Shown: positions 1-63,430, counted from the stretch's first letter. The stretch: 64,000 nt of DNA from Escherichia coli (GCF_046105845.1 NZ_CP151004.1), one strand, 5' to 3'. Translations and numbers: made by a program. Notes: generated by a model from the letters alone, not told the origin.

Positions 1-585
1 CATGCCCTGCGCGATAACGTTGGGCTGGCAAAAGCGGAAGTTATGGCGGAGCGTATTCGCCAGATTAACCCGGAGTGCCGTGTAACGGTGGTGGATGATT
101 TCGTGACGCCGGATAACGTAGCGCAGTATATGAGCGTGGGTTATTCGTACGTGATTGATGCCATTGATAGTGTACGGCCCAAAGCGGCGCTGATTGCTTA
201 TTGTCGGCGCAATAAAATCCCACTGGTCACAACCGGTGGCGCGGGTGGGCAGATTGACCCGACGCAGATTCAGGTTACCGATCTGGCGAAAACGATCCAG
301 GACCCGCTGGCGGCGAAGTTGCGTGAGCGCCTGAAAAGCGATTTTGGCATAGTGAAAAACAGTAAAGGTAAGCTCGGCGTGGATTGCGTGTTCTCTACCG
401 AAGCATTGGTGTACCCGCAGTCAGACGGTACGGTGTGTGCTATGAAAGCCACGGCGGAAGGGCCAAAGCGAATGGATTGTGCATCTGGATTTGGTGCTGC
501 GACGATGGTGACCGCCACCTTTGGTTTTGTTGCGGTTTCTCATGCGCTGAAGAAGATGATGGCGAAAGCGGCCCGTCAGGGGTAA
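1..585 (+). CDS. tcdA: tRNA threonylcarbamoyladenosine dehydratase TcdA/CsdL, C-terminal part (5' end cut by window edge)
   Basis: ORF 43..585 stays open in frame back to base 1 (HALRDNVGLAKAEV-MAERIRQ...); ThiF/MoeB-like E1 fold C-terminus; sits next to csdE-csdA as in E. coli. Confidence 0.8.
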   Translation, partial: HALRDNVGLAKAEVMAERIRQINPECRVTVVDDFVTPDNVAQYMSVGYSYVIDAIDSVRPKAALIAYCRRNKIPLVTTGGAGGQIDPTQIQVTDLAKTIQDPLAAKLRERLKSDFGIVKNSKGKLGVDCVFSTEALVYPQSDGTVCAMKATAEGPKRMDCASGFGAATMVTATFGFVAVSHALKKMMAKAARQG

Positions 586-590
586 ACAAG

Positions 591-627
591 CAGGTCGGAT
601 GCGACGCGAACGTCTTATCCGACCTGG
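591..627. repeat. REP-like palindromic unit downstream of tcdA
   Basis: caggtcggatgcgacgcgaacgtcttatccgacctgg: imperfect palindrome of REP type (GGATGCG...CTTATCC). Confidence 0.5.
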
Positions 628-635
628 TTCTGTGC

Positions 636-1079
636 TTAAACCTGCTTCGCCACAGCGATAATCGCCTCGCTTAACGCATTCAACCCCTGGCTGCGTGAGG
701 CGCTAAGCTGCGCACGCAATCCCAGCTCATCAAACAATGTCAGCGGCGACTGTGCCTGCAATTCGGCGGCGGTTTTCCCCTCAACGGCAGTCAACAACAC
801 CGCCAGCAGGCCGCGCACAATGCGCCCTTCGCTGTCGCCAAAGAAGTGCATTTTACCGTTTTCAGCCATGGTATATCCCAGCCAGACGCGGTTTTCGCAT
901 CCGGCAATCTCTTTAGCCTGTGCTTTTAATTCGTCTGGCAAAGCAGGAAGCTGTTTCCCCAGCATGATCAACTGGCGATATTTATCTTCCCATTGCGTCA
1001 ACGGTGCGAAGGTATTGCGTAACGTTTCTGCGGTTACGGTTGTGCCGAACGGATGTCCGGCGAATTGCGGGTTTGTCAT
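636..1079 (-). CDS. csdE: cysteine desulfurase sulfur acceptor CsdE (SufE-like)
   Basis: 147 aa ORF, SufE-family sequence, abuts csdA stop (coupled). Confidence 0.85.
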
Positions 1080-2284
1080 TAATCCACCAATAATTCCAGC
1101 GCGCGGTCAACGGCATTCACCAGCGCATCCACATCACTCTTTGTATTATATGGCGCAAAAGAGGCGCGCAGTGTGCCGGTTACGCCTAATTCTGCCAGTA
1201 GCGGCTGAGCGCAATGCTGCCCGGCCCGCAGGGCAATACCGTACTCCGCCAGCAGCGTCACCATATCGCTGTGATGAACGCCAGCAAAATCAAAGGCCAG
1301 CAGGCTGGAATCCTGGCAGCGAAATGAGCGGAAGCCAGGACGTTTTGCCAGCGCATCTTCCGCCAGCGTTGCTAAGCTACGGCTCCAGCTTTCGGCCTGG
1401 TTGATATCGTAATCTGCCAGCCATTCCAGCGCCGCGCTTAATCCTATGACACCAGCGACATTTGGCGTTCCAGCTTCCAGTTTCCACGGCGCAGATTGAG
1501 TCGTGAAGCCGTCAAAACTCACTTCGTGAACCATTTTGCCGCCGCCCAGCCAGGGCGACATCGCTTCCAGCAGTTCTGATTTGCCATACAGCACGCCGAT
1601 ACCTGTCGGGCCATACAGTTTGTGACCTGAAAAAGCATAGAAATCAATATCCAGTTGCTGAACATCCGCGGGGAAATGCACTGCCCCCTGAGCACCATCA
1701 ACCATCACCACCATCCCGGCTGAATGAGCAAAGGTAATCGCTCGCGCCAGATCCGGGCAACCGCCAGTGACGTTCGACATTTGTCCCAGAGCAAGAATTC
1801 GACTACGAGGTGTGATCAGTTCTGGCAACAAATCGACATCCGGCAGTCGCTGCGCATTAAGCGGCAATTTCACCACTTTGGCTCCAGTTTGTTGGGCGAC
1901 CATCAGCCAGGGGACAAGGTTAGCGTGGTGTTCTGCCACGCTGACAATAATCTCATCGCCCGGTTGCAGACGCGGACGCGCATAGCATTGTGCCACCATG
2001 TTGATGGATTCAGTGGTGCCGCGCGTCCAGACGATAGTTTTATCATCCGGTGCATTCAGTAATTGCGCCACTTTCTCTCGTGCAGCTTCAAAACGCGCGG
2101 TCAGGCGTTGGGCTTCGGCAAACTGGCTGCGATGGACGTTTCCGGCGCTCAGGCTGTAAAACTGTCGGGTGGCTTTAACCACGGCTTCAGGTTTAAGCGC
2201 GGTCGCGGCGCTGTCGAGATAGACGCCCGCATCCTGAAGTGCGGGAAACTGGGCGCGAAACTGCGCGGGATTAAAAACGTTCAT
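1079..2284 (-). CDS. csdA: cysteine desulfurase CsdA (PLP-dependent, class V aminotransferase fold)
   Basis: ORF 1079..2320 trimmed to the [16 protein letters not shown] start (ATG at 2282-2284 on the minus strand); PLP-lysine motif [11 protein letters not shown]. Confidence 0.9.
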
Positions 2285-2475
2285 GGTACTCCTCGGCTTG
2301 ATGAACCGATCGTGACGCAAAATTCACTTTGATACAAGGAGAGTGCTAACCATCAGAATTATCTGGATATCCTGGCGAAGCCGCGTAAGTAACATATGCT
2401 GAATAGTGTTAGGCGTTAATTTTAGCCTGTTAATCAATACTATTAAGATTTATTAATCGCTTTAAGGAGAAGATG

Positions 2476-2703
2476 ATGAAAAAGACTGCCGCAATTATTT
2501 CTGCCTGTATGCTGACTTTTGCCCTGAGCGCCTGTTCCGGTTCGAACTATGTGATGCACACCAATGACGGACGTACCATCGTCTCTGACGGCAAACCACA
2601 GACTGATAACGATACCGGTATGATTTCGTATAAAGACGCTAATGGCAACAAACAGCAGATCAACCGTACTGACGTGAAAGAGATGGTCGAACTGGATCAG
2701 TAA
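2476..2703 (+). CDS. ygdI: small lipoprotein, DUF903 family
   Basis: [23 protein letters not shown] signal peptide with lipobox (LSAC); 75 aa; RBS aaggaga upstream. Confidence 0.8.
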
Positions 2704-2719
2704 TTCGCGATCGCAAGGT

Positions 2720-2925
2720 AAAAAAAAGCACCGCAATTAGGCGGTGCTACATTAATCACTATGGACAGACAGGGTAAATGTACAGGAAGTGAAAAAAGGT
2801 AGCTTTGCTACCATGGTCTGAATCGCAGACCAATTGCAAACACAACAACACAACATCACAACCGTAAGCCAAAAGTTCACCAGAACACGCATTCCGATAA
2901 AACTTTTCGTTCCGGCTCAGGAAGT
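2720..2925 (-). ncRNA. gcvB: GcvB small regulatory RNA (Hfq-dependent, represses amino-acid/peptide transporter mRNAs)
   Basis: Minus-strand sequence reads ACTTCCTGAGCCGGAACGAAAAGTTTTATCGGAATGCGTGTTCTGGTGAAC...TGTTGTGTTGTTGTGTTTGCAATTGG... (G/U-rich R1 region) and ends in hairpin GCACCGCCTAATTGCGGTGC plus U8; divergent from gcvA. Confidence 0.85.
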
Positions 2926-3053
2926 GCCGCCACTATAGGTATTTGCTGGTAGAAGCTCAACGGACAATTTATAATGGCTCAGATTAAAAAAACTAATAGG
3001 TTACACAGTGTGATCTAATTGTTAAATTCATTTAACATCAAAGTTTAAAAGCC
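2926..3053. promoter_or_regulatory. gcvA/gcvB divergent promoter region
   Basis: 128 bp AT-rich spacer between the gcvB 5' end and the gcvA start codon; known site of GcvA autoregulation and gcvB activation. Confidence 0.5.
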
Positions 3054-3971
3054 ATGTCTAAACGATTACCACCGCTAAATGCCTTACGAGTTTTTGATGC
3101 CGCAGCACGCCATTTAAGTTTCACTCGCGCAGCAGAAGAGCTTTTTGTGACCCAGGCCGCAGTAAGTCATCAAATCAAGTCTCTTGAGGATTTTCTGGGG
3201 CTAAAACTGTTCCGCCGCCGTAATCGTTCACTCCTGCTGACCGAGGAAGGTCAAAGCTATTTCCTCGATATCAAAGAGATATTTTCGCAATTAACCGAAG
3301 CGACGCGTAAACTCCAGGCCCGTAGCGCCAAGGGGGCGTTGACGGTCAGTTTACTCCCCAGTTTCGCCATTCATTGGTTGGTTCCGCGACTTTCCAGCTT
3401 TAATTCAGCTTATCCGGGAATTGACGTTCGAATCCAGGCGGTTGATCGTCAGGAAGATAAGCTGGCGGATGATGTTGATGTGGCGATATTTTATGGTCGG
3501 GGCAACTGGCCGGGGCTACGGGTGGAAAAACTGTACGCCGAGTATTTATTGCCGGTGTGTTCGCCGCTACTGCTGACTGGCGAAAAACCCTTGAAGACCC
3601 CGGAAGATCTGGCTAAACATACGTTATTACATGATGCGTCGCGTCGTGACTGGCAGACATATACTCGCCAATTGGGGTTAAATCATATCAACGTTCAGCA
3701 AGGGCCAATTTTTAGCCATAGCGCCATGGTGCTGCAAGCGGCTATTCACGGGCAGGGAGTGGCGCTGGCAAATAACGTGATGGCGCAATCTGAAATCGAG
3801 GCCGGACGTCTTGTTTGCCCGTTTAATGATGTTCTGGTCAGTAAAAATGCTTTTTATCTGGTTTGTCATGACAGTCAGGCAGAACTGGGTAAAATAGCCG
3901 CCTTTCGCCAATGGATCCTGGCGAAAGCCGCTGCTGAACAAGAAAAATTCCGCTTTCGTTATGAACAATAA
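3054..3971 (+). CDS. gcvA: LysR-family transcriptional regulator GcvA (glycine cleavage system activator)
   Basis: 305 aa; N-terminal LysR HTH (LRVFDAAARHLSFTRAAEELFVTQAAVSHQIKSLE). Confidence 0.9.
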   Translation: MSKRLPPLNALRVFDAAARHLSFTRAAEELFVTQAAVSHQIKSLEDFLGLKLFRRRNRSLLLTEEGQSYFLDIKEIFSQLTEATRKLQARSAKGALTVSLLPSFAIHWLVPRLSSFNSAYPGIDVRIQAVDRQEDKLADDVDVAIFYGRGNWPGLRVEKLYAEYLLPVCSPLLLTGEKPLKTPEDLAKHTLLHDASRRDWQTYTRQLGLNHINVQQGPIFSHSAMVLQAAIHGQGVALANNVMAQSEIEAGRLVCPFNDVLVSKNAFYLVCHDSQAELGKIAAFRQWILAKAAAEQEKFRFRYEQ

Positions 3972-41272: not shown

Positions 41273-42643
41273 GAGTTCCCCGCGCCAGCGGGGATAAACC
41301 GTTGTCCTGCTGAACCAAGTAAGCCACTGACAAGAGTTCCCCGCGCCAGCGGGGATAAACCGCATTATATCCTGTGCGTCGTTCATTTATTTACGAGTTC
41401 CCCGCGCCAGCGGGGATAAACCGGCCGCCGCATGGCAAAACAAACATCGGGGTACGAGTTCCCCGCGCCAGCGGGGATAAACCGGAACGGCGGCTATACG
41501 GATTCGACAGGTCAGCGAGTTCCCCGCGCCAGCGGGGATAAACCGGATTGAATGCAGATGGTTCAATGCTCGCATTCGAGTTCCCCGCGCCAGCGGGGAT
41601 AAACCGCCACGCGTGCTTTGAGTGGATGGTGTCGCTTGGAGTTCCCCGCGCCAGCGGGGATAAACCGATACATTATTAAGCGGGCAATTTTTCCAGTTTG
41701 AGTTCCCCGCGCCAGCGGGGATAAACCGAACGGCACGGCCTGCCGCCACGTCCCGCAGCTGAGTTCCCCGCGCCAGCGGGGATAAACCGGGGCCGTGTTT
41801 TCTAACGGATTCGCACATTGCGAGTTCCCCGCGCCAGCGGGGATAAACCGCAGCAGTTCAATACTGAAATCAACATGCCGATGAGTTCCCCGCGCCAGCG
41901 GGGATAAACCGCGCGGTGGGGTTTCATTCGCATCAATTCAAGGGAGTTCCCCGCGCCAGCGGGGATAAACCGGCGGTGAGTGAGAAAATCAGGACGGCTG
42001 CGAGGAGTTCCCCGCGCCAGCGGGGATAAACCGCGCCAAATATGCTGGTGGACTTCTACGCCGATGAGTTCCCCGCGCCAGCGGGGATAAACCGCTATCG
42101 ACGGTCAAGAAAATCCACCGGAAGAAGAGTTCCCCGCGCCAGCGGGGATAAACCGGCAGCAATATATTTGACATAATAGATAACCCGGAGTTCCCCGCGC
42201 CAGCGGGGATAAACCGACGCCAGGGGAGATATAACGCGCCTGTTATGGGAGTTCCCCGCGCCAGCGGGGATAAACCGGTCTTAACTAAAAGATGACCATT
42301 CAGTCGCAGGAGTTCCCCGCGCCAGCGGGGATAAACCGCGGCCCATAATATTAATATAATCCACATGAGGGAGTTCCCCGCGCCAGCGGGGATAAACCGC
42401 GCCGGAAATCATCGTTCTGTAATTGTCTAGCGAGTTCCCCGCGCCAGCGGGGATAAACCGCCCTGTTTGTTATTCCCATTATACGTATAAGAGAGTTCCC
42501 CGCGCCAGCGGGGATAAACCGCTTCTGGCTGGAGGTGGAGAAACGGAGGCAATGAGTTCCCCGCGTTAGCGGGGATAAACCGGATTTAGAGAGCCAGACG
42601 TTGGTCAGTTATTCGAGTTCCCCGCGTCAGCGGGGATAACCAT
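41273..42643 (+). CRISPR. Type I-E CRISPR array, 23 repeats / 22 spacers
   Basis: 29-bp repeat GAGTTCCCCGCGCCAGCGGGGATAAACCG recurs at exactly 61-bp period from 41273 to 42615; 32-bp unique spacers; repeat 22 has C>T (GCGTTAGCGGGG); terminal repeat degenerate (GCGTCAGCGGGGATAACCA). Confidence 0.97.
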
Positions 42644-42688: not shown

Positions 42689-44167
42689 TTACGCATTCGA
42701 CCAGCTCTGGATCGAATCTTCATTCCCCAATTCCCCATGCATCACTTCATACGATTTTTTCAGGATCACATCAGTGTGTTTGGTTAGGTCTTTGAAAATG
42801 CCTTTATTCATCGCGTCGTAGCGTTTGGCGTTGCTCTCAACAGGCATAAAGATATCTTTCACGCGAACCATTTTGTCGACAGCCGTTGCGTAATCCGGGT
42901 ATAGCCCCAGACCTACCGCCGTATTAATCGCTGCCCCCAGGCTTGCACAACCATTAATGGCGTTACGGCGTGCCGGAAGGTTGAACACGTCGGCAAAAAT
43001 CTGCATAAACAGATCGCTGTTCGAACCGCCGCCAGTAATGATCACATGCTTTGCAAAGTGATTCATTTCATTACACATATTGTCGTAATTGTTCTTCAGC
43101 GTCAGCGCCACGCTTTCCAGTATCGAACGATATATCCATGCGTAATCCATGCTGGAATCAAAGCCGATCATAATCCCGCGTTTGTACGGTTCCCACGGAT
43201 TGGTCAGCCAGTCCAGCACCGTCATCAGACCATTACAGCCAGGCGGCACACAAGACGCTTTTTTGTTGAGCAAATCTTCCGGTGAAAGATCCTGTGCTTT
43301 GGCATCCTGAATTAACGACTCGCCTAACATGTCGCGTAGCCAGCTCACCGTCCACATGCCTTTGCGGATACCGTAACCTTCATACAGCAAGGTTTGTGGA
43401 ATAGAAGACATAATCGGCCAGTACGCTACCGGATCTTTCGGCAGTGCTTTGCCGTTCATCATCAACGCGATGTAAGTGCCAAGAGAAATTACCGCAGTTT
43501 CATCATCCAGTAACCCGGCTCCCAGTGCTTCTACCGGTTTATCACTGGTGGTACAAACAACCGGCAGCCCAGCCGGGAAATGTGTAGCCAGCGCGGCTTG
43601 AGGAGTGATATGCCCAAGAACAGTGCCCGGCATTTGCACATCAAACAGCATATGACGGGGGATATTAAACTTCTCCATGACTGCGGCATCTTCACTCCAT
43701 GCCCAGGTCTTATAATCCACCGGCCACTGACCAAAATAGTTGGCGATATTGTCTTTAAACTCGCCGGTTAAGCGATGCGTCAGATAACCTGAAAAAGAGG
43801 TGACATATGCCACGTCAGGATTCGTATGTTCGTAAGGGCGTGTAACGCGTGCATCCTGCCAGCTAATCAACGGCGCAGCTGGCGTGCCATCGGCTTTCAA
43901 TAACGCACGGCAGCAACGGATGGATCCCAGACCAATACCGACAATATCTTCTTTATTTCCGGCAAACTGACTCATCAAATCGTGACCGGCAAAACATAAT
44001 GATGCCCATAAATCGTCGTCAGGATGTTCTGCGGTATCGGCATCTGGCGTGTGCATCGGCTGTAATAAGCCTTTGCCTTCGCAAACCACGTTACCTTCCA
44101 GATCGTACATCACCACTTTTGTGCTCTGACTTCCGCCATCAATCCCTATGATGTATTTTTTCGACAT
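42689..44167 (-). CDS. ygcE: FGGY-family carbohydrate kinase YgcE (substrate unknown)
   Basis: 492 aa MSKKYIIGIDGGSQSTKVVMYD; FGGY N- and C-terminal domains. Confidence 0.85.
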   Translation of the reverse strand: MSKKYIIGIDGGSQSTKVVMYDLEGNVVCEGKGLLQPMHTPDADTAEHPDDDLWASLCFAGHDLMSQFAGNKEDIVGIGLGSIRCCRALLKADGTPAAPLISWQDARVTRPYEHTNPDVAYVTSFSGYLTHRLTGEFKDNIANYFGQWPVDYKTWAWSEDAAVMEKFNIPRHMLFDVQMPGTVLGHITPQAALATHFPAGLPVVCTTSDKPVEALGAGLLDDETAVISLGTYIALMMNGKALPKDPVAYWPIMSSIPQTLLYEGYGIRKGMWTVSWLRDMLGESLIQDAKAQDLSPEDLLNKKASCVPPGCNGLMTVLDWLTNPWEPYKRGIMIGFDSSMDYAWIYRSILESVALTLKNNYDNMCNEMNHFAKHVIITGGGSNSDLFMQIFADVFNLPARRNAINGCASLGAAINTAVGLGLYPDYATAVDKMVRVKDIFMPVESNAKRYDAMNKGIFKDLTKHTDVILKKSYEVMHGELGNEDSIQSWSNA

Positions 44168-58482: not shown

Positions 58483-58840
58483 ATATTGCCGGATAAATTA
58501 AACGCCTCTGTCAGAAATGATGGGGGCGTTTTTATTTTGCGAGCAGCATTCCTGATTTTAAACGTGAACGCCGCTGGAAGAATCAACAGGTATATAATGG
58601 TGTCGGGTGCTTGAGGCTGTCTGGCGTTAAGCATTCGCGAGGTTCCAGATGGACAAAAGCCCCAGGCGATATTTCTATCAACCTGAGGCCAGCGTTCGAA
58701 CCCAAACAATTCGAATGTTAGTCTCTTCTTTGCAGGGAGGCAAGACATGTGTATATCACTGTAATTCGATATTTATGAGCAGCATCGAAAAATAGTCCAC
58801 TGATATCATCGATAATACTAAAAAAACAGGGAGGCTATTA

Positions 58841-61507
58841 ATGGAACCTTTTAAATATATATGTCATTACTGGGGGAAATCCTCAAAAAGCCTGACGAAA
58901 GGAAATGATATTCATCTGTTGATTTATCATTGCCTGGATGTTGCAGCTGTTGCAGATTGCTGGTGGGATCAATCAGTCGTACTACAAAATGCTTTTTGCC
59001 GAAATGAAATGCTATCAAAACAGAAGGTGAAAGCCTGGCTGTTATTTTTCATTGCCCTTCATGATATCGGAAAGTTTGATATACGATTCCAATATAAATC
59101 AGCAGAAAGTTGGCTGAAATTAAATCCTGCAACGCCATCACTTAATGGTCCATCAACACAAATGTGCCGTAAATTTAATCATGGTGCAGCCGGTCTGTAT
59201 TGGTTTAACCAGGATTCACTTTCAGAGCAATCTCCCGGGGATTTTTTCAGTTTTTTTGATGCCGCTCCTCATCCTTATGAGTCCTGGTTTCCATGGGTAG
59301 AGGCCGTTACAGGACATCATGGTTTTATATTACATTCCCAGGATCAAGATAAGTCGCGTTGGGAAATGCCAGCTTCTCTGGCATCTTATGCTGCGCAAGA
59401 TAAACAGGCTCGTGAGGAGTGGATATCTGTACTCGAAGCATTATTTTTAACGCCAGCTGGGTTATCTATAAACGATATACCACCTGATTGTTCATCACTG
59501 TTAGCAGGTTTTTGCTCGCTTGCTGACTGGTTAGGTTCCTGGACCACAACGGATACCTTTCTATTCAAAGAAGATGCACCTTCAGGCATACAAGCGCTAA
59601 GAACATATTTTCAGTATAGACAACAGGATGCGTGTCGGGTACTGGAGTTGAGTGGCCTTGTATCAAATAAGCGTAGTTATGACGGCGTACATGCCTTACT
59701 GGACAATGGCTATCAACCAAGACAATTACAGGTGTTGGTTGATGCTCTTCCTACAGCTCCCGGGCTGACGGTGATTGAGGCACCTACGGGATCAGGTAAA
59801 ACCGAAACAGCGCTGGCCTATGCCTGGAAACTTATTGACCAACAACTTGCGGAGAGTGTTATTTTTGCCCTCCCTACACAAGCTACTGCAAATGCAATGC
59901 TCAGTAGAATGGAAGCGAACGCGAGCCGTTTATTTACCTCCCCAAATCTTATTCTTGCTCATGGTAATTCACGTTTTAACCACCTTTTTCAATCAATAAA
60001 ATCACGCGCATTTACTGAGCAGGGGCAAGAAGAAGCATGGGTTCAGTGTTGCCAATGGTTGTCACAAAGTAATAAGAAAGTGTTTCTAGGGCAAATAGGC
60101 GTTTGCACGATTGATCAGGTATTGATATCGGTATTGCCAGTTAAACATCGCTTTATCCGTGGTTTGGGAATTGGTCGAAGTATTTTAATTGTTGATGAAG
60201 TTCATGCTTACGACACGTATATGAACGGCTTGCTGGAGGCTGTGCTCAAGGCTCAGGCTGATGTGGGAGGGAGTGTTATTCTTCTTTCCGCAACTCTACC
60301 AATGAAACAAAAACAGAAACTTCTGGATACTTATGGTCTGCATACAGATCCAGAGGAAAATAACTCCGCATATCCACTCATTAACTGGCGAGGTGTGAAT
60401 GGTGCACAACGTTTTGATCTGTTAGCTCATCCAGAACAACTCCCGCCCCGCTTTTCGATTCGGCCAGAACCTATTTATTTAGCTGACATGTTACCTGACC
60501 TTAGGATGTTAGAGCGAATGATCGCAGCGGCAAATGCGGGTGCACAAGTCTGTCTTATCTGCAATTTGGTTGATGTTGCACAACTATGCCACCAACGGTT
60601 AAAGGAACTAAATAACACGCAAGTAGATATAGATTTGTTTCATGCGCGCTTTACGCTGAACGATCGTCGTGAAAAAGAGAATCGAGTTATTAGCAATTTC
60701 GGCAAAAATGGGAAGCGAAATGTTGGACGGATACTTGTCGCCACCCAGGTCGTGGAACAATCACTCGACGTTGATTTTGATTGGTTAATTACTCAGCATT
60801 GCCCCGCAGATTTACTTTTCCAACGATTGGGCCGTTTACATCGCCATCATCGCAAATATCGTCCCGCTGGTTTTGAGGTTCCTCTTGCCACCGTTTTGCT
60901 GCCTGATGGCGAAGGTTACGGACGACATGAGCATATTTATAGCAACGTTAGAGTCATGTGGCGGACGCAGCAACATATTGAGGAACTTAATGGAGCATCC
61001 TTATTTTTCCCCGATGCCTACCGGCAATGGCTGGATAGCATTTACGATGATGCTGAAATGGATGAGCCAGAATGGGTCATCAAAGGCATGGATAAGTTTG
61101 AAAGCGCTGAGTGTGAAAAGAGGTTCAAGGCTCGCAAGGTTCTGCAGTGGGCTGAAGAATATAGCTTGCAGGATAACGATGAAACAATTCTTGCGGTAAC
61201 GAGGGATGGGGAAATGAGCCTGCCATTATTGCCTTATTTACAAACGTCTTCAGGTAAACAACTGCTCGATGGCCAGGTCTACGAGGACCTAAGTCATGAA
61301 CAGCAGTATGAGGCGTTAGCACTTAATCGCGTCAATGTACCCTTCACCTGGAAACGTAATTTTTCTGAAGTAGTAGATGAAGATGGGTTACTTTGGCTGG
61401 AAGGGAAACAGAATCAGAATGGATGGATCTGGCAGGGTAATAATATTGTTATTACCTACACTCGGGATGAAGGGATGACCAGAGTCATCCCTGCAAATCC
61501 CAAATAA
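58841..61507 (+). CDS. cas3: CRISPR-associated nuclease/helicase Cas3 (type I-E)
   Basis: 888 aa; HD nuclease motif (FIALHDIGKFD), SF2 helicase Walker A (EAPTGSGKTETAL) and DEAH-type box (LIVDEVHAYD). Confidence 0.95.
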   Translation: MEPFKYICHYWGKSSKSLTKGNDIHLLIYHCLDVAAVADCWWDQSVVLQNAFCRNEMLSKQKVKAWLLFFIALHDIGKFDIRFQYKSAESWLKLNPATPSLNGPSTQMCRKFNHGAAGLYWFNQDSLSEQSPGDFFSFFDAAPHPYESWFPWVEAVTGHHGFILHSQDQDKSRWEMPASLASYAAQDKQAREEWISVLEALFLTPAGLSINDIPPDCSSLLAGFCSLADWLGSWTTTDTFLFKEDAPSGIQALRTYFQYRQQDACRVLELSGLVSNKRSYDGVHALLDNGYQPRQLQVLVDALPTAPGLTVIEAPTGSGKTETALAYAWKLIDQQLAESVIFALPTQATANAMLSRMEANASRLFTSPNLILAHGNSRFNHLFQSIKSRAFTEQGQEEAWVQCCQWLSQSNKKVFLGQIGVCTIDQVLISVLPVKHRFIRGLGIGRSILIVDEVHAYDTYMNGLLEAVLKAQADVGGSVILLSATLPMKQKQKLLDTYGLHTDPEENNSAYPLINWRGVNGAQRFDLLAHPEQLPPRFSIRPEPIYLADMLPDLRMLERMIAAANAGAQVCLICNLVDVAQLCHQRLKELNNTQVDIDLFHARFTLNDRREKENRVISNFGKNGKRNVGRILVATQVVEQSLDVDFDWLITQHCPADLLFQRLGRLHRHHRKYRPAGFEVPLATVLLPDGEGYGRHEHIYSNVRVMWRTQQHIEELNGASLFFPDAYRQWLDSIYDDAEMDEPEWVIKGMDKFESAECEKRFKARKVLQWAEEYSLQDNDETILAVTRDGEMSLPLLPYLQTSSGKQLLDGQVYEDLSHEQQYEALALNRVNVPFTWKRNFSEVVDEDGLLWLEGKQNQNGWIWQGNNIVITYTRDEGMTRVIPANPK

Positions 61508-61921
61508 CTTCGGGAATGATTGGTATCAATGACGATAACAAGACCAATAACGGTTTATCCCTACTTAAGTAGGGAAGGTGCACAATGTACATCTTCTTTT
61601 AATTTCCCGGTATGAGATTTTATATTCACAGTATGAATATTTTATGTAATAAAATTCATGGTGATTATTATAACTAAAAATTTCTTTGATAATAAAACGA
61701 ATAACTTGCAGATTTGAAATGCATGCATTATTGTCTTTAAACAATTCAACACATCTTAATATATGCATAGGTTAATTGTATTAAACCAATGGATATATTT
61801 TTGCAGTGAATGTGATTATTGAATTAATTACGCCGTATTTTTTCTTTGTTTTTACCGATAACGGAAGTGTGCCGACGTATAGAAATGCAGGAGAAATGTC
61901 GGAGCATATGAAGGAGAACAA
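61508..61921 (+). promoter_or_regulatory. cas3-cse1 intergenic region containing the Cascade operon promoter (Pcas)
   Basis: 414 bp, strongly AT-rich, non-coding, directly upstream of cse1; in E. coli K-12 this region is H-NS-silenced and LeuO-activated (established knowledge; exact promoter elements not mapped here). Confidence 0.6.
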
Positions 61922-63430
61922 ATGAATTTGCTTATTGATAACTGGATCCCTGTACGCCCGCGAAACGGGGGGAAAGTCCAAATCATAAATCTGCAATCGC
62001 TATACTGCAGTAGAGATCAGTGGCGATTAAGTTTGCCCCGTGACGATATGGAACTGGCCGCTTTAGCACTGCTGGTTTGCATTGGGCAAATTATCGCCCC
62101 GGCAAAAGATGACGTTGAATTTCGACATCGCATAATGAATCCGCTCACTGAAGATGAGTTTCAACAACTCATCGCGCCGTGGATAGATATGTTCTACCTT
62201 AATCACGCAGAACATCCCTTTATGCAGACCAAAGGTGTCAAAGCAAATGATGTGACTCCAATGGAAAAACTGTTGGCTGGGGTAAGCGGCGCGACGAATT
62301 GTGCATTTGTCAATCAACCGGGGCAGGGTGAAGCATTATGTGGTGGATGCACTGCGATTGCGTTATTCAACCAGGCGAATCAGGCACCTGGTTTTGGTGG
62401 TGGCTTTAAAAGCGGTTTACGTGGAGGAACACCTATAACCACCTTCGTATGTGGGATCGATCTTCGCTCGACGGTGTTACTCAATGTCCTCACAATACCT
62501 CGTCTTCAAAAACAATTTCCCAATGAATCAAATACGGAAAACCAACCTACCTGGATTAAGCCTGTCAAGCCCAATGAATCTGTGCCAGCTTCGTCAATTG
62601 GGTTTGTCCGTGGCTTATTCTGGCAACCAGCGCATATTGAATTATGCGATCCCATTGGGATTGGTAAATGTTCTTGCTGTGGACAGGAAAGCAATTTGCG
62701 TTATACAGGTTTTCTTAAGGAAAAATTTACCTTTACAGTTAATGGGCTATGGCCCCATCCGCATTCCCCTTGTCTGGTAACAGTCAAGAAAGGGGAGGTT
62801 GAGGAAAAATTTCTTGCTTTCACCACCTCCGCACCATCATGGACACAAATCAGCCGAGTTGTGGTAGATAAGATTATTCAAAATGAAAATGGAAATCGCG
62901 TGGCGGCGGTTGTGAATCAATTCAGAAATATTGCGCCGCAAAGTCCTCTTGAATTGATTATGGGGGGATATCGTAATAATCAAGCATCTATTCTTGAACG
63001 GCGTCATGATGTGTTGATGTTTAATCAGGGGTGGCAACAATACGGCAATGTGATAAACGAAATAGTGACTGTTGGTTTGGGATATAAAACAGCCTTACGC
63101 AAGGCGTTATATACCTTTGCAGAAGGGTTTAAAAATAAAGACTTCAAAGGGGCCGGAGTCTCTGTTCATGAGACTGCAGAAAGGCATTTCTATCGACAGA
63201 GTGAATTATTAATTCCCGATGTACTGGCGAATATTAATTTTTCCCAAGCTGATGAGGTAATAGCTGATCTACGAGACAAACTTCATCAATTGTGTGAAAT
63301 GCTATTTAATCAATCTGTAGCTCCCTATGCACATCATCCTAAATTAATAAGCACATTAGCGCTTGCCCGCGCCACGCTATACAAACATTTACGGGAGTTA
63401 AAACCGCAAGGAGGGTCATCAAATGGCTGA
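61922..63430 (+). CDS. casA: Cascade large subunit Cse1 (CasA, Cas8e)
   Basis: 502 aa MNLLIDNWIPVRPRNGGKVQIINLQSLYCSRDQWRLSLPRDD, recognised as E. coli Cse1. Confidence 0.95.
   Translation: MNLLIDNWIPVRPRNGGKVQIINLQSLYCSRDQWRLSLPRDDMELAALALLVCIGQIIAPAKDDVEFRHRIMNPLTEDEFQQLIAPWIDMFYLNHAEHPFMQTKGVKANDVTPMEKLLAGVSGATNCAFVNQPGQGEALCGGCTAIALFNQANQAPGFGGGFKSGLRGGTPITTFVCGIDLRSTVLLNVLTIPRLQKQFPNESNTENQPTWIKPVKPNESVPASSIGFVRGLFWQPAHIELCDPIGIGKCSCCGQESNLRYTGFLKEKFTFTVNGLWPHPHSPCLVTVKKGEVEEKFLAFTTSAPSWTQISRVVVDKIIQNENGNRVAAVVNQFRNIAPQSPLELIMGGYRNNQASILERRHDVLMFNQGWQQYGNVINEIVTVGLGYKTALRKALYTFAEGFKNKDFKGAGVSVHETAERHFYRQSELLIPDVLANINFSQADEVIADLRDKLHQLCEMLFNQSVAPYAHHPKLISTLALARATLYKHLRELKPQGGSSNG

Follow-up and report, generated by a model that had tools for sequence, protein, structure and literature searches.

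The stretch of Escherichia coli DNA analyzed here (GCF_046105845.1, NZ_CP151004.1; 64,000 nucleotides, hereafter the window) carries a type I-E cas locus next to cysH, and the element in question is the intergenic region that separates cas3 from casA (cse1) in that locus. The region spans positions 61508-61921, which is the exact 414-bp gap between the cas3 stop codon and the casA ATG at 61922. An earlier note, made from the sequence alone, had described this interval as very AT-rich, and both its boundaries and its composition are borne out: GC content is 30.7% over the interval and falls to 24% in the core (61601-61850), compared with 50.3% for the whole window and 44% for each of cas3 and casA. 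The interval is the lowest-GC 414-bp tile of the window; equally AT-rich tiles make up 0.14% and all of them overlap 61508-61921. The AT run quoted in the earlier note lies at ~61618-61704. The genes flanking the interval are indeed less AT-rich, but they are not housekeeping genes as the note had it: the immediate neighbors are cas genes, and one has to go further upstream to reach the housekeeping genes cysJIH (52-62% GC). On its minus strand, in the anti-Pcas direction, the region holds a feature that the earlier note overlooked, a degenerate mini-array of the CRISPR type, whose RNA probably guides Cascade back to its own promoter. The coordinates of all features are collected in Table 1.

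Table 1. Features of the cas3-casA intergenic region and of its surroundings in the window
Feature	Positions	Strand	Basis or remark
ψR1, repeat-like, ACCTTCCCTACTTAAGTAGGGATAAACCG	61551..61579 (61579→61551)	-	19/29 vs window CRISPR repeat
ψS, spacer-like segment, TTATTGGTCTTGTTATCGTCATTGATACCAA, 31 nt	61520..61550 (61550→61520)	-	between the hairpins
ψR2, degraded distal repeat, TCATTCCCGAAGTTATTTGGGATTTGCAG	61491..61519 (61519→61491)	-	14/29 vs repeat; overlaps cas3 stop codon (61505-61507)
Protospacer-like self-target	61674..61704	-	ψS pairs with its PAM-proximal 17 nt (61704→61688); top non-self match of the 64-kb window
Protospacer-adjacent motif (PAM), 5′-AAG-3′ (plus strand CTT)	61705..61707 (61707→61705)	-	kept in L034
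Predicted Pcas core: -35 TTGCAG 61706-61711, 17 nt, -10 TATTGT 61729-61734	61706..61734	+	promoter matrix scan
Predicted anti-Pcas: -35 TTATTA 61695→61690, 17 nt, -10 TATAAT 61672→61667	61667..61695	-	promoter scans
LeuO high-affinity core site IIa (assignment inferred from published description), ATATTCA-CAGTA-TGAATAT	61622..61640	.	sole perfect 7-5-7 palindrome of the region
Candidate SlyA site, TTATTGAATTAA	61817..61828	+	PMC5797941; centered ~100 bp upstream of casA; invariant in 11 alleles
casA Shine-Dalgarno, AAGGAG	61911..61916	+	5 nt before ATG; kept in L034 and L029
cas3-casA intergenic region, counterpart of K-12 'IGLB'	61508..61921	.	boundaries, composition, 98.3% identity to MG1655
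cas3, 888 aa	58841..61507	+	open reading frame; NCBIfam NF007248 Cas3, 1601 bits
casA/cse1, 502 aa	61922..63430	+	open reading frame; NCBIfam NF007247 type I-E Cse1/CasA, 904 bits
Type I-E CRISPR array, repeat GAGTTCCCCGCGCCAGCGGGGATAAACCG	41273..42643	+	21 exact and 2 degenerate copies, period 61

The mini-array consists of a repeat-like sequence (ψR1), a spacer-like segment (ψS) and a degraded distal repeat (ψR2). The reference repeat used for comparison is that of the window's own type I-E array, which is identical to the repeat of the K-12 array. ψR1 folds into a 7-bp stem with a tetraloop and has an intact 8-nt 5′ handle, ATAAACCG (8/8); its matches to the repeat include the last 11 nt, where the foot of the Cas6e hairpin and the handle lie. 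Both of the diverged stem pairs carry double, compensatory changes, leaving all seven pairs of the stem formed. No other 29-mer of the window outside the array combines at least 19/29 identity with a 7/7 stem, and none of 2000 shuffles of the region produces one. ψR2 also forms a 7-bp stem (one G-U pair) with a tetraloop, in the same register as in the repeat. On the plus strand an A·C mismatch would take the place of the G-U pair, so that minus-strand RNA forms the better hairpin. From one hairpin to the next the period is 60 nt, compared with 61-62 nt in the K-12 array. When the repeat, the two E. coli pseudo-repeats and the two copies from the homologous region L034 described below are aligned, the five sequences share an identical fold with 100% of the stem cells paired, and three of the seven stem pairs are altered on both sides. 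For the whole putative anti-Pcas RNA the fold z-score is modest (-2.4), and the informative signal resides in the two local hairpins. Rfam gives no match at E ≤ 1 on either strand of 61508-61921.

The protospacer-like target of ψS lies within the same interval and is flanked by an AAG PAM. Bases 6 and 12 flip out in Cascade instead of pairing and were left unscored; 14 of the 15 scored positions match (1-5, 7-8, 10-11, and 13-17), and position 9 is the sole mismatch at a pairing position. Among 20,000 shuffled spacers, not one scores 14/15 at any AAG site of the region. The paired part together with the PAM (61688-61707) covers the predicted -35 element of anti-Pcas and abuts the predicted -35 element of Pcas.

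Conservation was surveyed in 11 E. coli alleles, a small and non-independent sample. No variation is seen in the ψR1 hairpin and handle, in the whole of ψR2, at spacer positions 1-11 and 13-27, in the PAM or at target positions 1-16. The full ψR1 is unchanged in 10 of the 11 alleles, the eleventh differing by one base outside the stem, and ψS has only two variable sites, positions 12 and 28. Nucleotide diversity (pi) is 1.55% in the intergenic region, with 5.6% of sites segregating and no indels, whereas third-codon positions have a pi of 4.95% in cas3 (12.8% segregating) and 3.31% in casA (10.5% segregating). Intergenic polymorphism is thus two to three times below that of the flanking third positions (Fisher p = 0.0004 for cas3 and 0.03 for casA). 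In the Pcas leader (61801-61921), 2 of 121 sites segregate among these alleles, versus 18 of 200 in the AT-rich core.

A CasA search combined with contig look-ups gave two long homologous gaps, L034 and L029. L034 is a metagenome scaffold with a CasA 71% identical to that of the window, and its gap is likewise 414 bp with 30.7% GC. It contains a mini-array, with a ψR1 at 21/29 that has the full handle and stem and a ψR2 at 19/29, as well as an AAG-flanked target matching at 14/15 in the equivalent relative place. Relative to the window, L034 shows joint changes of spacer and target at two positions, from T:T to C:C at position 8 and from C:C to A:A at position 17. What aligns between the two regions is the mini-array, the PAM-flanked target and the casA Shine-Dalgarno sequence. 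The promoter layout of L034 is comparable (TTCCAT, 17 nt, TATTAT) and again sits beside the PAM. At 410-3086 of the same scaffold cas3 is called as two open reading frames (ORFs; 245 and 637 aa), which suggests a frameshift; the mini-array and the PAM-flanked target are still well preserved there. The second homologous region, L029, comes from Salmonella and is considered below. The closest Citrobacter CasA found (Citrobacter sp.) goes with a gap of 94 bp, and an Atlantibacter relative has one of 30 bp.

The K-12 MG1655 counterpart (NC_000913.3, 2884139-2884552) is also 414 bp long and is identical at 407 positions, with seven substitutions (window positions 61523, 61539, 61663, 61680, 61688, 61766 and 61792) and no indels. 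All seven lie outside the LeuO palindrome, the hexamers predicted for Pcas and the seed of the target. The base at 61688 restores pairing at target position 17, where K-12 has a mismatch, and that at 61539 alters spacer position 12, which does not pair. As in the K-12 IGLB, the LeuO palindrome, the SlyA site, the casA Shine-Dalgarno sequence and both predicted promoters are all intact in the window.

The earlier note had stated that the K-12 equivalent carries Pcas and an antisense promoter and is bound by H-NS and LeuO. Homology and published work agree on this point, and the identification of the interval as the known K-12-type Pcas/anti-Pcas control region is supported. Pcas, the divergent anti-Pcas and their silencing by H-NS were described by Pul 2010, as summarized in PMC10011333 and PMC7074321, and StpA silences Pcas in the absence of H-NS (PMC10011333). 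The anti-Pcas RNA is 150-200 nt long, overlaps the cas3 3′ end and is of unknown role (PMC7074321). Two AT-rich LeuO sites flank the promoter (Westra 2010; Fragel 2019, PMC6698644), and one of them, site IIa, is palindromic (19 bp, 7-5-7) and recurs in near-identical form at leuO (Fragel 2019, PMC6698644). CRP is a repressor whose site overlaps a LeuO site (PMC4782391), SlyA binds in the region (PMC5797941), and casA/cas3 is counted among the H-NS-associated 'promoter islands' (PMC3661553). Control of the K-12 region by H-NS, LeuO, CRP, SlyA and StpA is covered by Pul 2010, Westra 2010, Yang 2014, Fragel 2019 and Curran 2017. Going by homology and, for H-NS, also by AT-richness, binding and silencing by H-NS and the action of LeuO would extend to the window strain.

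The sequence ATATTGA-TTTGG-TGAATAT upstream of K-12 leuO is near-identical to the palindrome that we assign to site IIa. A scan of species-representative genomes with the 19-nt palindrome returned 14 matches, all in unrelated taxa and taken as chance, and none in Escherichia. Inspection of the region by eye revealed no convincing CRP site of the form TGTGA-N6-TCACA, and upstream of cas3 there is no good FNR motif (TTGAT-N4-ATCAA) near the position expected from Citrobacter rodentium. Promoter prediction by matrix yields good candidates on both strands. The predicted Pcas start lies near 61741, giving a leader of ~181 nt, and the predicted anti-Pcas start lies near 61660, with alternative starts at 61610-61682. 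The matrix scan finds 32 sigma-70-like sites in the interval versus a median of 4 per tile, the highest density of the window, largely because of the AT content; in a simpler promoter scan the count for the interval is no higher than in shuffled sequence.

The mini-array, the promoters and their regulators are already known, the promoters and regulators from work of 2010-2020 and the mini-array from 2023, when it was predicted by Shmakov et al. (2023; bioRxiv 10.1101/2023.03.03.530964 and Nucleic Acids Research) among regulatory mini-arrays located between cas3 and cas8e of type I-E loci. Their E. coli mini-array is the same element as ours: it runs opposite to cas3, and its proximal repeat is better kept than the distal one. 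Their target is AAG-flanked and partial, with mismatches at every sixth position, and lies over an H-NS site just upstream of Pcas. They also report that the start region of the E. coli mini-array overlaps LeuO and CRP sites. Neither the anti-Pcas promoter nor its RNA appears in the preprint, whose experimental test concerns type I-F1 rather than E. coli type I-E; the literature searched nowhere names the anti-Pcas promoter in connection with the mini-array.

Two further systems are closely related. In Salmonella enterica type I-E, the CRISPR RNA (crRNA)-like CreR (Cas-regulating RNA) represses PcasA via the E. coli MG1655 Cascade, and this repression is relieved by an excess of crRNA or by AcrIE8 (Liu et al. 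2023, bioRxiv 10.1101/2023.03.10.532045). CreR resembles the element described here in being a degenerate mini-CRISPR within the cas locus, with the ψR1 handle kept and an AAG-flanked target upstream of casA. It differs in the target itself, which has 15 consecutive matches ~140 bp upstream of casA in Salmonella, whereas that of the window has 14/15 discontinuous matches 218 bp upstream. In Citrobacter rodentium, the 495-bp cas3-casA gap is occupied by CreTA, an addiction module that combines a crRNA-like antitoxin with a toxin repressed by Cascade, the latter being translated and 31 aa long (Basta et al. 2025, PMC12055562). Modules of this kind, also found in Haloarcula hispanica type I-B (Li et al. 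2021), share with the window a crRNA-like RNA and a PAM-flanked partial target, and the C. rodentium module further shares the location in the cas3-casA gap, the RNA on the opposite strand and the target on a promoter reading toward casA. Unlike the window, which has no conserved equivalent, C. rodentium possesses a 96-bp toxin ORF with a strong ribosome-binding site.

We consider it likely that two layers of control operate jointly at this locus, an H-NS-silenced Pcas/anti-Pcas region and a mini-array that guides Cascade onto its own promoter. The first layer has been shown for K-12 and is carried over to the window on the strength of 98% identity. Here, divergent promoters would lie back to back in the AT-rich core, with Pcas driving casABCDE12 via a leader of ~180 nt and anti-Pcas reading toward cas3. 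H-NS, or StpA if H-NS is absent, would coat the DNA and silence both promoters. LeuO bound at two flanking sites, including 61622-61640, would block the spreading of H-NS, and CRP and SlyA would bind as well.

The second layer is the one predicted by Shmakov et al. 2023, and the support added for it here comes from sequence statistics and covariation. The anti-Pcas transcript would carry ψR1-ψS-ψR2, and Cas6e would cut both hairpins to leave a crRNA-like RNA of ~60 nt with a normal 5′ handle, starting with AUAAACCG. Loaded into Cascade, this RNA would pair through ~17 PAM-proximal nucleotides at the AAG-flanked site 61688-61707. Such pairing would be too short to license cleavage by Cas3, and Cascade would stay in place as a repressor. 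Negative feedback on Cascade, and on the synthesis of the RNA itself, would follow once H-NS is relieved, which amounts to autorepression of the CreR type. The sequence evidence for a CreR-like mini-array is strong, and we infer Cas6e processing and Cascade autorepression. The published anti-Pcas RNA would be the precursor of the mini-array RNA: a transcript begun at ~61660 and running through ψR2 as far as 61491 would measure ~170 nt, in keeping with the reported 150-200 nt.

Several points weigh against this two-layer interpretation. Polymorphism in the AT-rich core (18/200 sites segregating) comes close to that of synonymous sites. ψR2 is weakly repeat-like (14/29) and lies partly inside cas3, so that its conservation may owe something to coding sequence. 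The covariation of spacer and target rests on a single divergent homologue, L034. In the 401-bp gap of L029, the repeat-like sequences are degraded and there is no convincing PAM-flanked target; indeed, this mini-array is too degraded to register either spacer or target. The hexamers of Pcas and anti-Pcas are predictions made in DNA where promoter-like matches are very frequent. Finally, our literature search found no expression, processing or binding test of the native E. coli mini-array.

Silencing by H-NS might also be all that there is to the region. The repeats would then be a decaying relic that no longer has a function, derived from the end of a former array or from a spacer integrated astray, and the anti-Pcas RNA would be transcriptional noise of a promoter island. 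The locus is silent under laboratory conditions, casA or cas3 is broken in many E. coli strains, and chance promoter-like sites abound in AT-rich DNA; the poor likeness of ψR2 to the repeat and the decay of the Salmonella homologue fit the same picture. However, a relic would not preserve both hairpins through compensatory changes, nor would it keep a PAM-flanked seed match at a level that no shuffled spacer attains, nor show linked changes of spacer and target in a homologue with no more than 71% CasA identity. On balance we regard this explanation as unlikely, though it deserves to be kept in mind. A different objection starts from the perfect palindrome TCCCTACTTAAGTAGGGA (61558-61575) within ψR1, which could be a terminator for cas3 or a bidirectional one, its likeness to the repeat being coincidental. 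It is located 51 nt past the cas3 stop codon and would form a stable hairpin on either strand, but neither strand has a U-tract after it and a terminator scan makes no call. A role as terminator would also leave unexplained the identity of the 8-nt handle, the in-register hairpin 60 nt away and the PAM-flanked target, and we find this reading very improbable. The roles of terminator and mini-array are not mutually exclusive.

The resemblance to C. rodentium raises the question of whether the region is instead an addiction module, in which the targeted promoter drives a small toxin encoded in the Pcas leader and freed upon loss of Cascade. The layout of C. rodentium is the same, with CreA on the opposite strand and its target on the UP element of the toxin promoter (PMC12055562). 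The leader of the window is unusually conserved (61801-61921, 2/121 sites segregating), and it contains a 39-codon ORF (61806-61925) with a hydrophobic N-terminus and a TGA that overlaps the casA ATG, intact in E. coli. This ORF nevertheless begins with GTG, lacks a Shine-Dalgarno sequence, homologues and any Pfam family match, and is absent from L034. A 19-codon ORF starting with ATG at 61763 is shortened to 9 codons in 10 of the 11 alleles, and downstream of the target no plus-strand ORF combines an ATG with a Shine-Dalgarno sequence at a suitable distance. The candidates for a CreT-like toxin gene between ~61741 and casA were rejected, being shortened in most alleles or missing from L034; a toxin in the form of an RNA is conceivable. 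Single cas-gene deletions are viable in K-12, and the K-12 region is routinely cloned, both of which speak against a toxin held in check by Cascade. We give very little credence to this scheme, and it seems equally far-fetched that the region is a complete CreTA module in which Pcas drives a toxin as well, with the 39-codon ORF as one candidate, held down by H-NS and the Cascade-RNA complex and released when Cascade is lost or inhibited.

Protein coding on the minus strand can be dealt with more briefly. The ORFs at 61565..61768 and 61781..61996, dismissed as spurious in the earlier note, do exist and deserve that description, because neither has a significant family match and neither is ever annotated in ~1,100 RefSeq genomes. 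The 67-aa minus-strand ORF lacks its ATG in 9 of the 11 alleles, and in two it is interrupted by a stop codon. A conserved coding gene, which that note had named as the finding that would overturn its view, is not seen in the interval: there is no NCBIfam match and a single sub-threshold match to Pfam. In RefSeq, none of the ~1,100 genomes with the region has any feature annotated in the interval.

The region is present in 1133 of 5426 complete E. coli genomes and is always chromosomal. The window strain is not K-12; its best genome matches reach 99.3% over the interval and 98.4% in cysH. The O157:H7-type variant occupies the same chromosomal site with the same gene order (cysH, hok/sok, cas3, casA), but its cas3-casA gap is 97 bp, of normal GC content and too small for the mini-array (contig L004, 11043-11139, O157:H7 LSU61). 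Nissle 1917 (B2) has cysH-hok-iap without a cas locus. Because the O157 gap is short and Nissle is free of the locus, the AT-rich region with its mini-array is specific to the K-12-type variant, that is, to 21% of complete genomes.

Some K-12-type strains carry lesions at the locus. In about 20 of the 1133 genomes the match extends over less than 80% of the region, in some of them at two places per genome, which suggests insertion sequence (IS) insertions or deletions within the control region; in strain 1506, only the first 38 bp after cas3 remain. Four of eight sampled K-12-type strains have broken systems (F5656C1, 2014EL-1343-2, ST540 and RM9872-C1), with an internal stop in casA in two cases, an IS3 element in cas3 in one and an IS3 element in casA in another. 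The intergenic region, the mini-array and the target are all still intact in these four.

The CRISPR array lies ~16 kb ahead of cas3, and we presume it to be the cas-distal one of the locus. Some 900 bp past it, on the minus strand at 43535-43563, a 29-mer, CGGTTGTTTGTACCACCAGTGATAAACCG, has a perfect 8-nt handle, four of seven stem pairs and 18/29 identity to the repeat; it may be a chance or a relic repeat. Between cysH and cas3, positions 58605-58761 on the plus strand match the sok antitoxin RNA (Rfam RF01794, 103.7 bits). The same site is annotated as sokX in K-12 and as a Hok/Gef coding sequence in O157 and Nissle. A 48-aa ORF overlapping the sok match (58649-58795) has no Pfam match, and hok may therefore have decayed in the window.

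What the present analysis adds to the earlier prediction is an annotation of the window and modest extra support from the covariation and the allele survey. The mini-array would represent a second, RNA-guided layer of control that becomes visible only once H-NS is lifted. As in the case of Salmonella CreR, such a layer would tie the output of Cascade to the crRNA load and to attack by anti-CRISPR proteins. It also suggests a concrete role, open to testing, for the anti-Pcas RNA, which has lacked an explanation since 2010.

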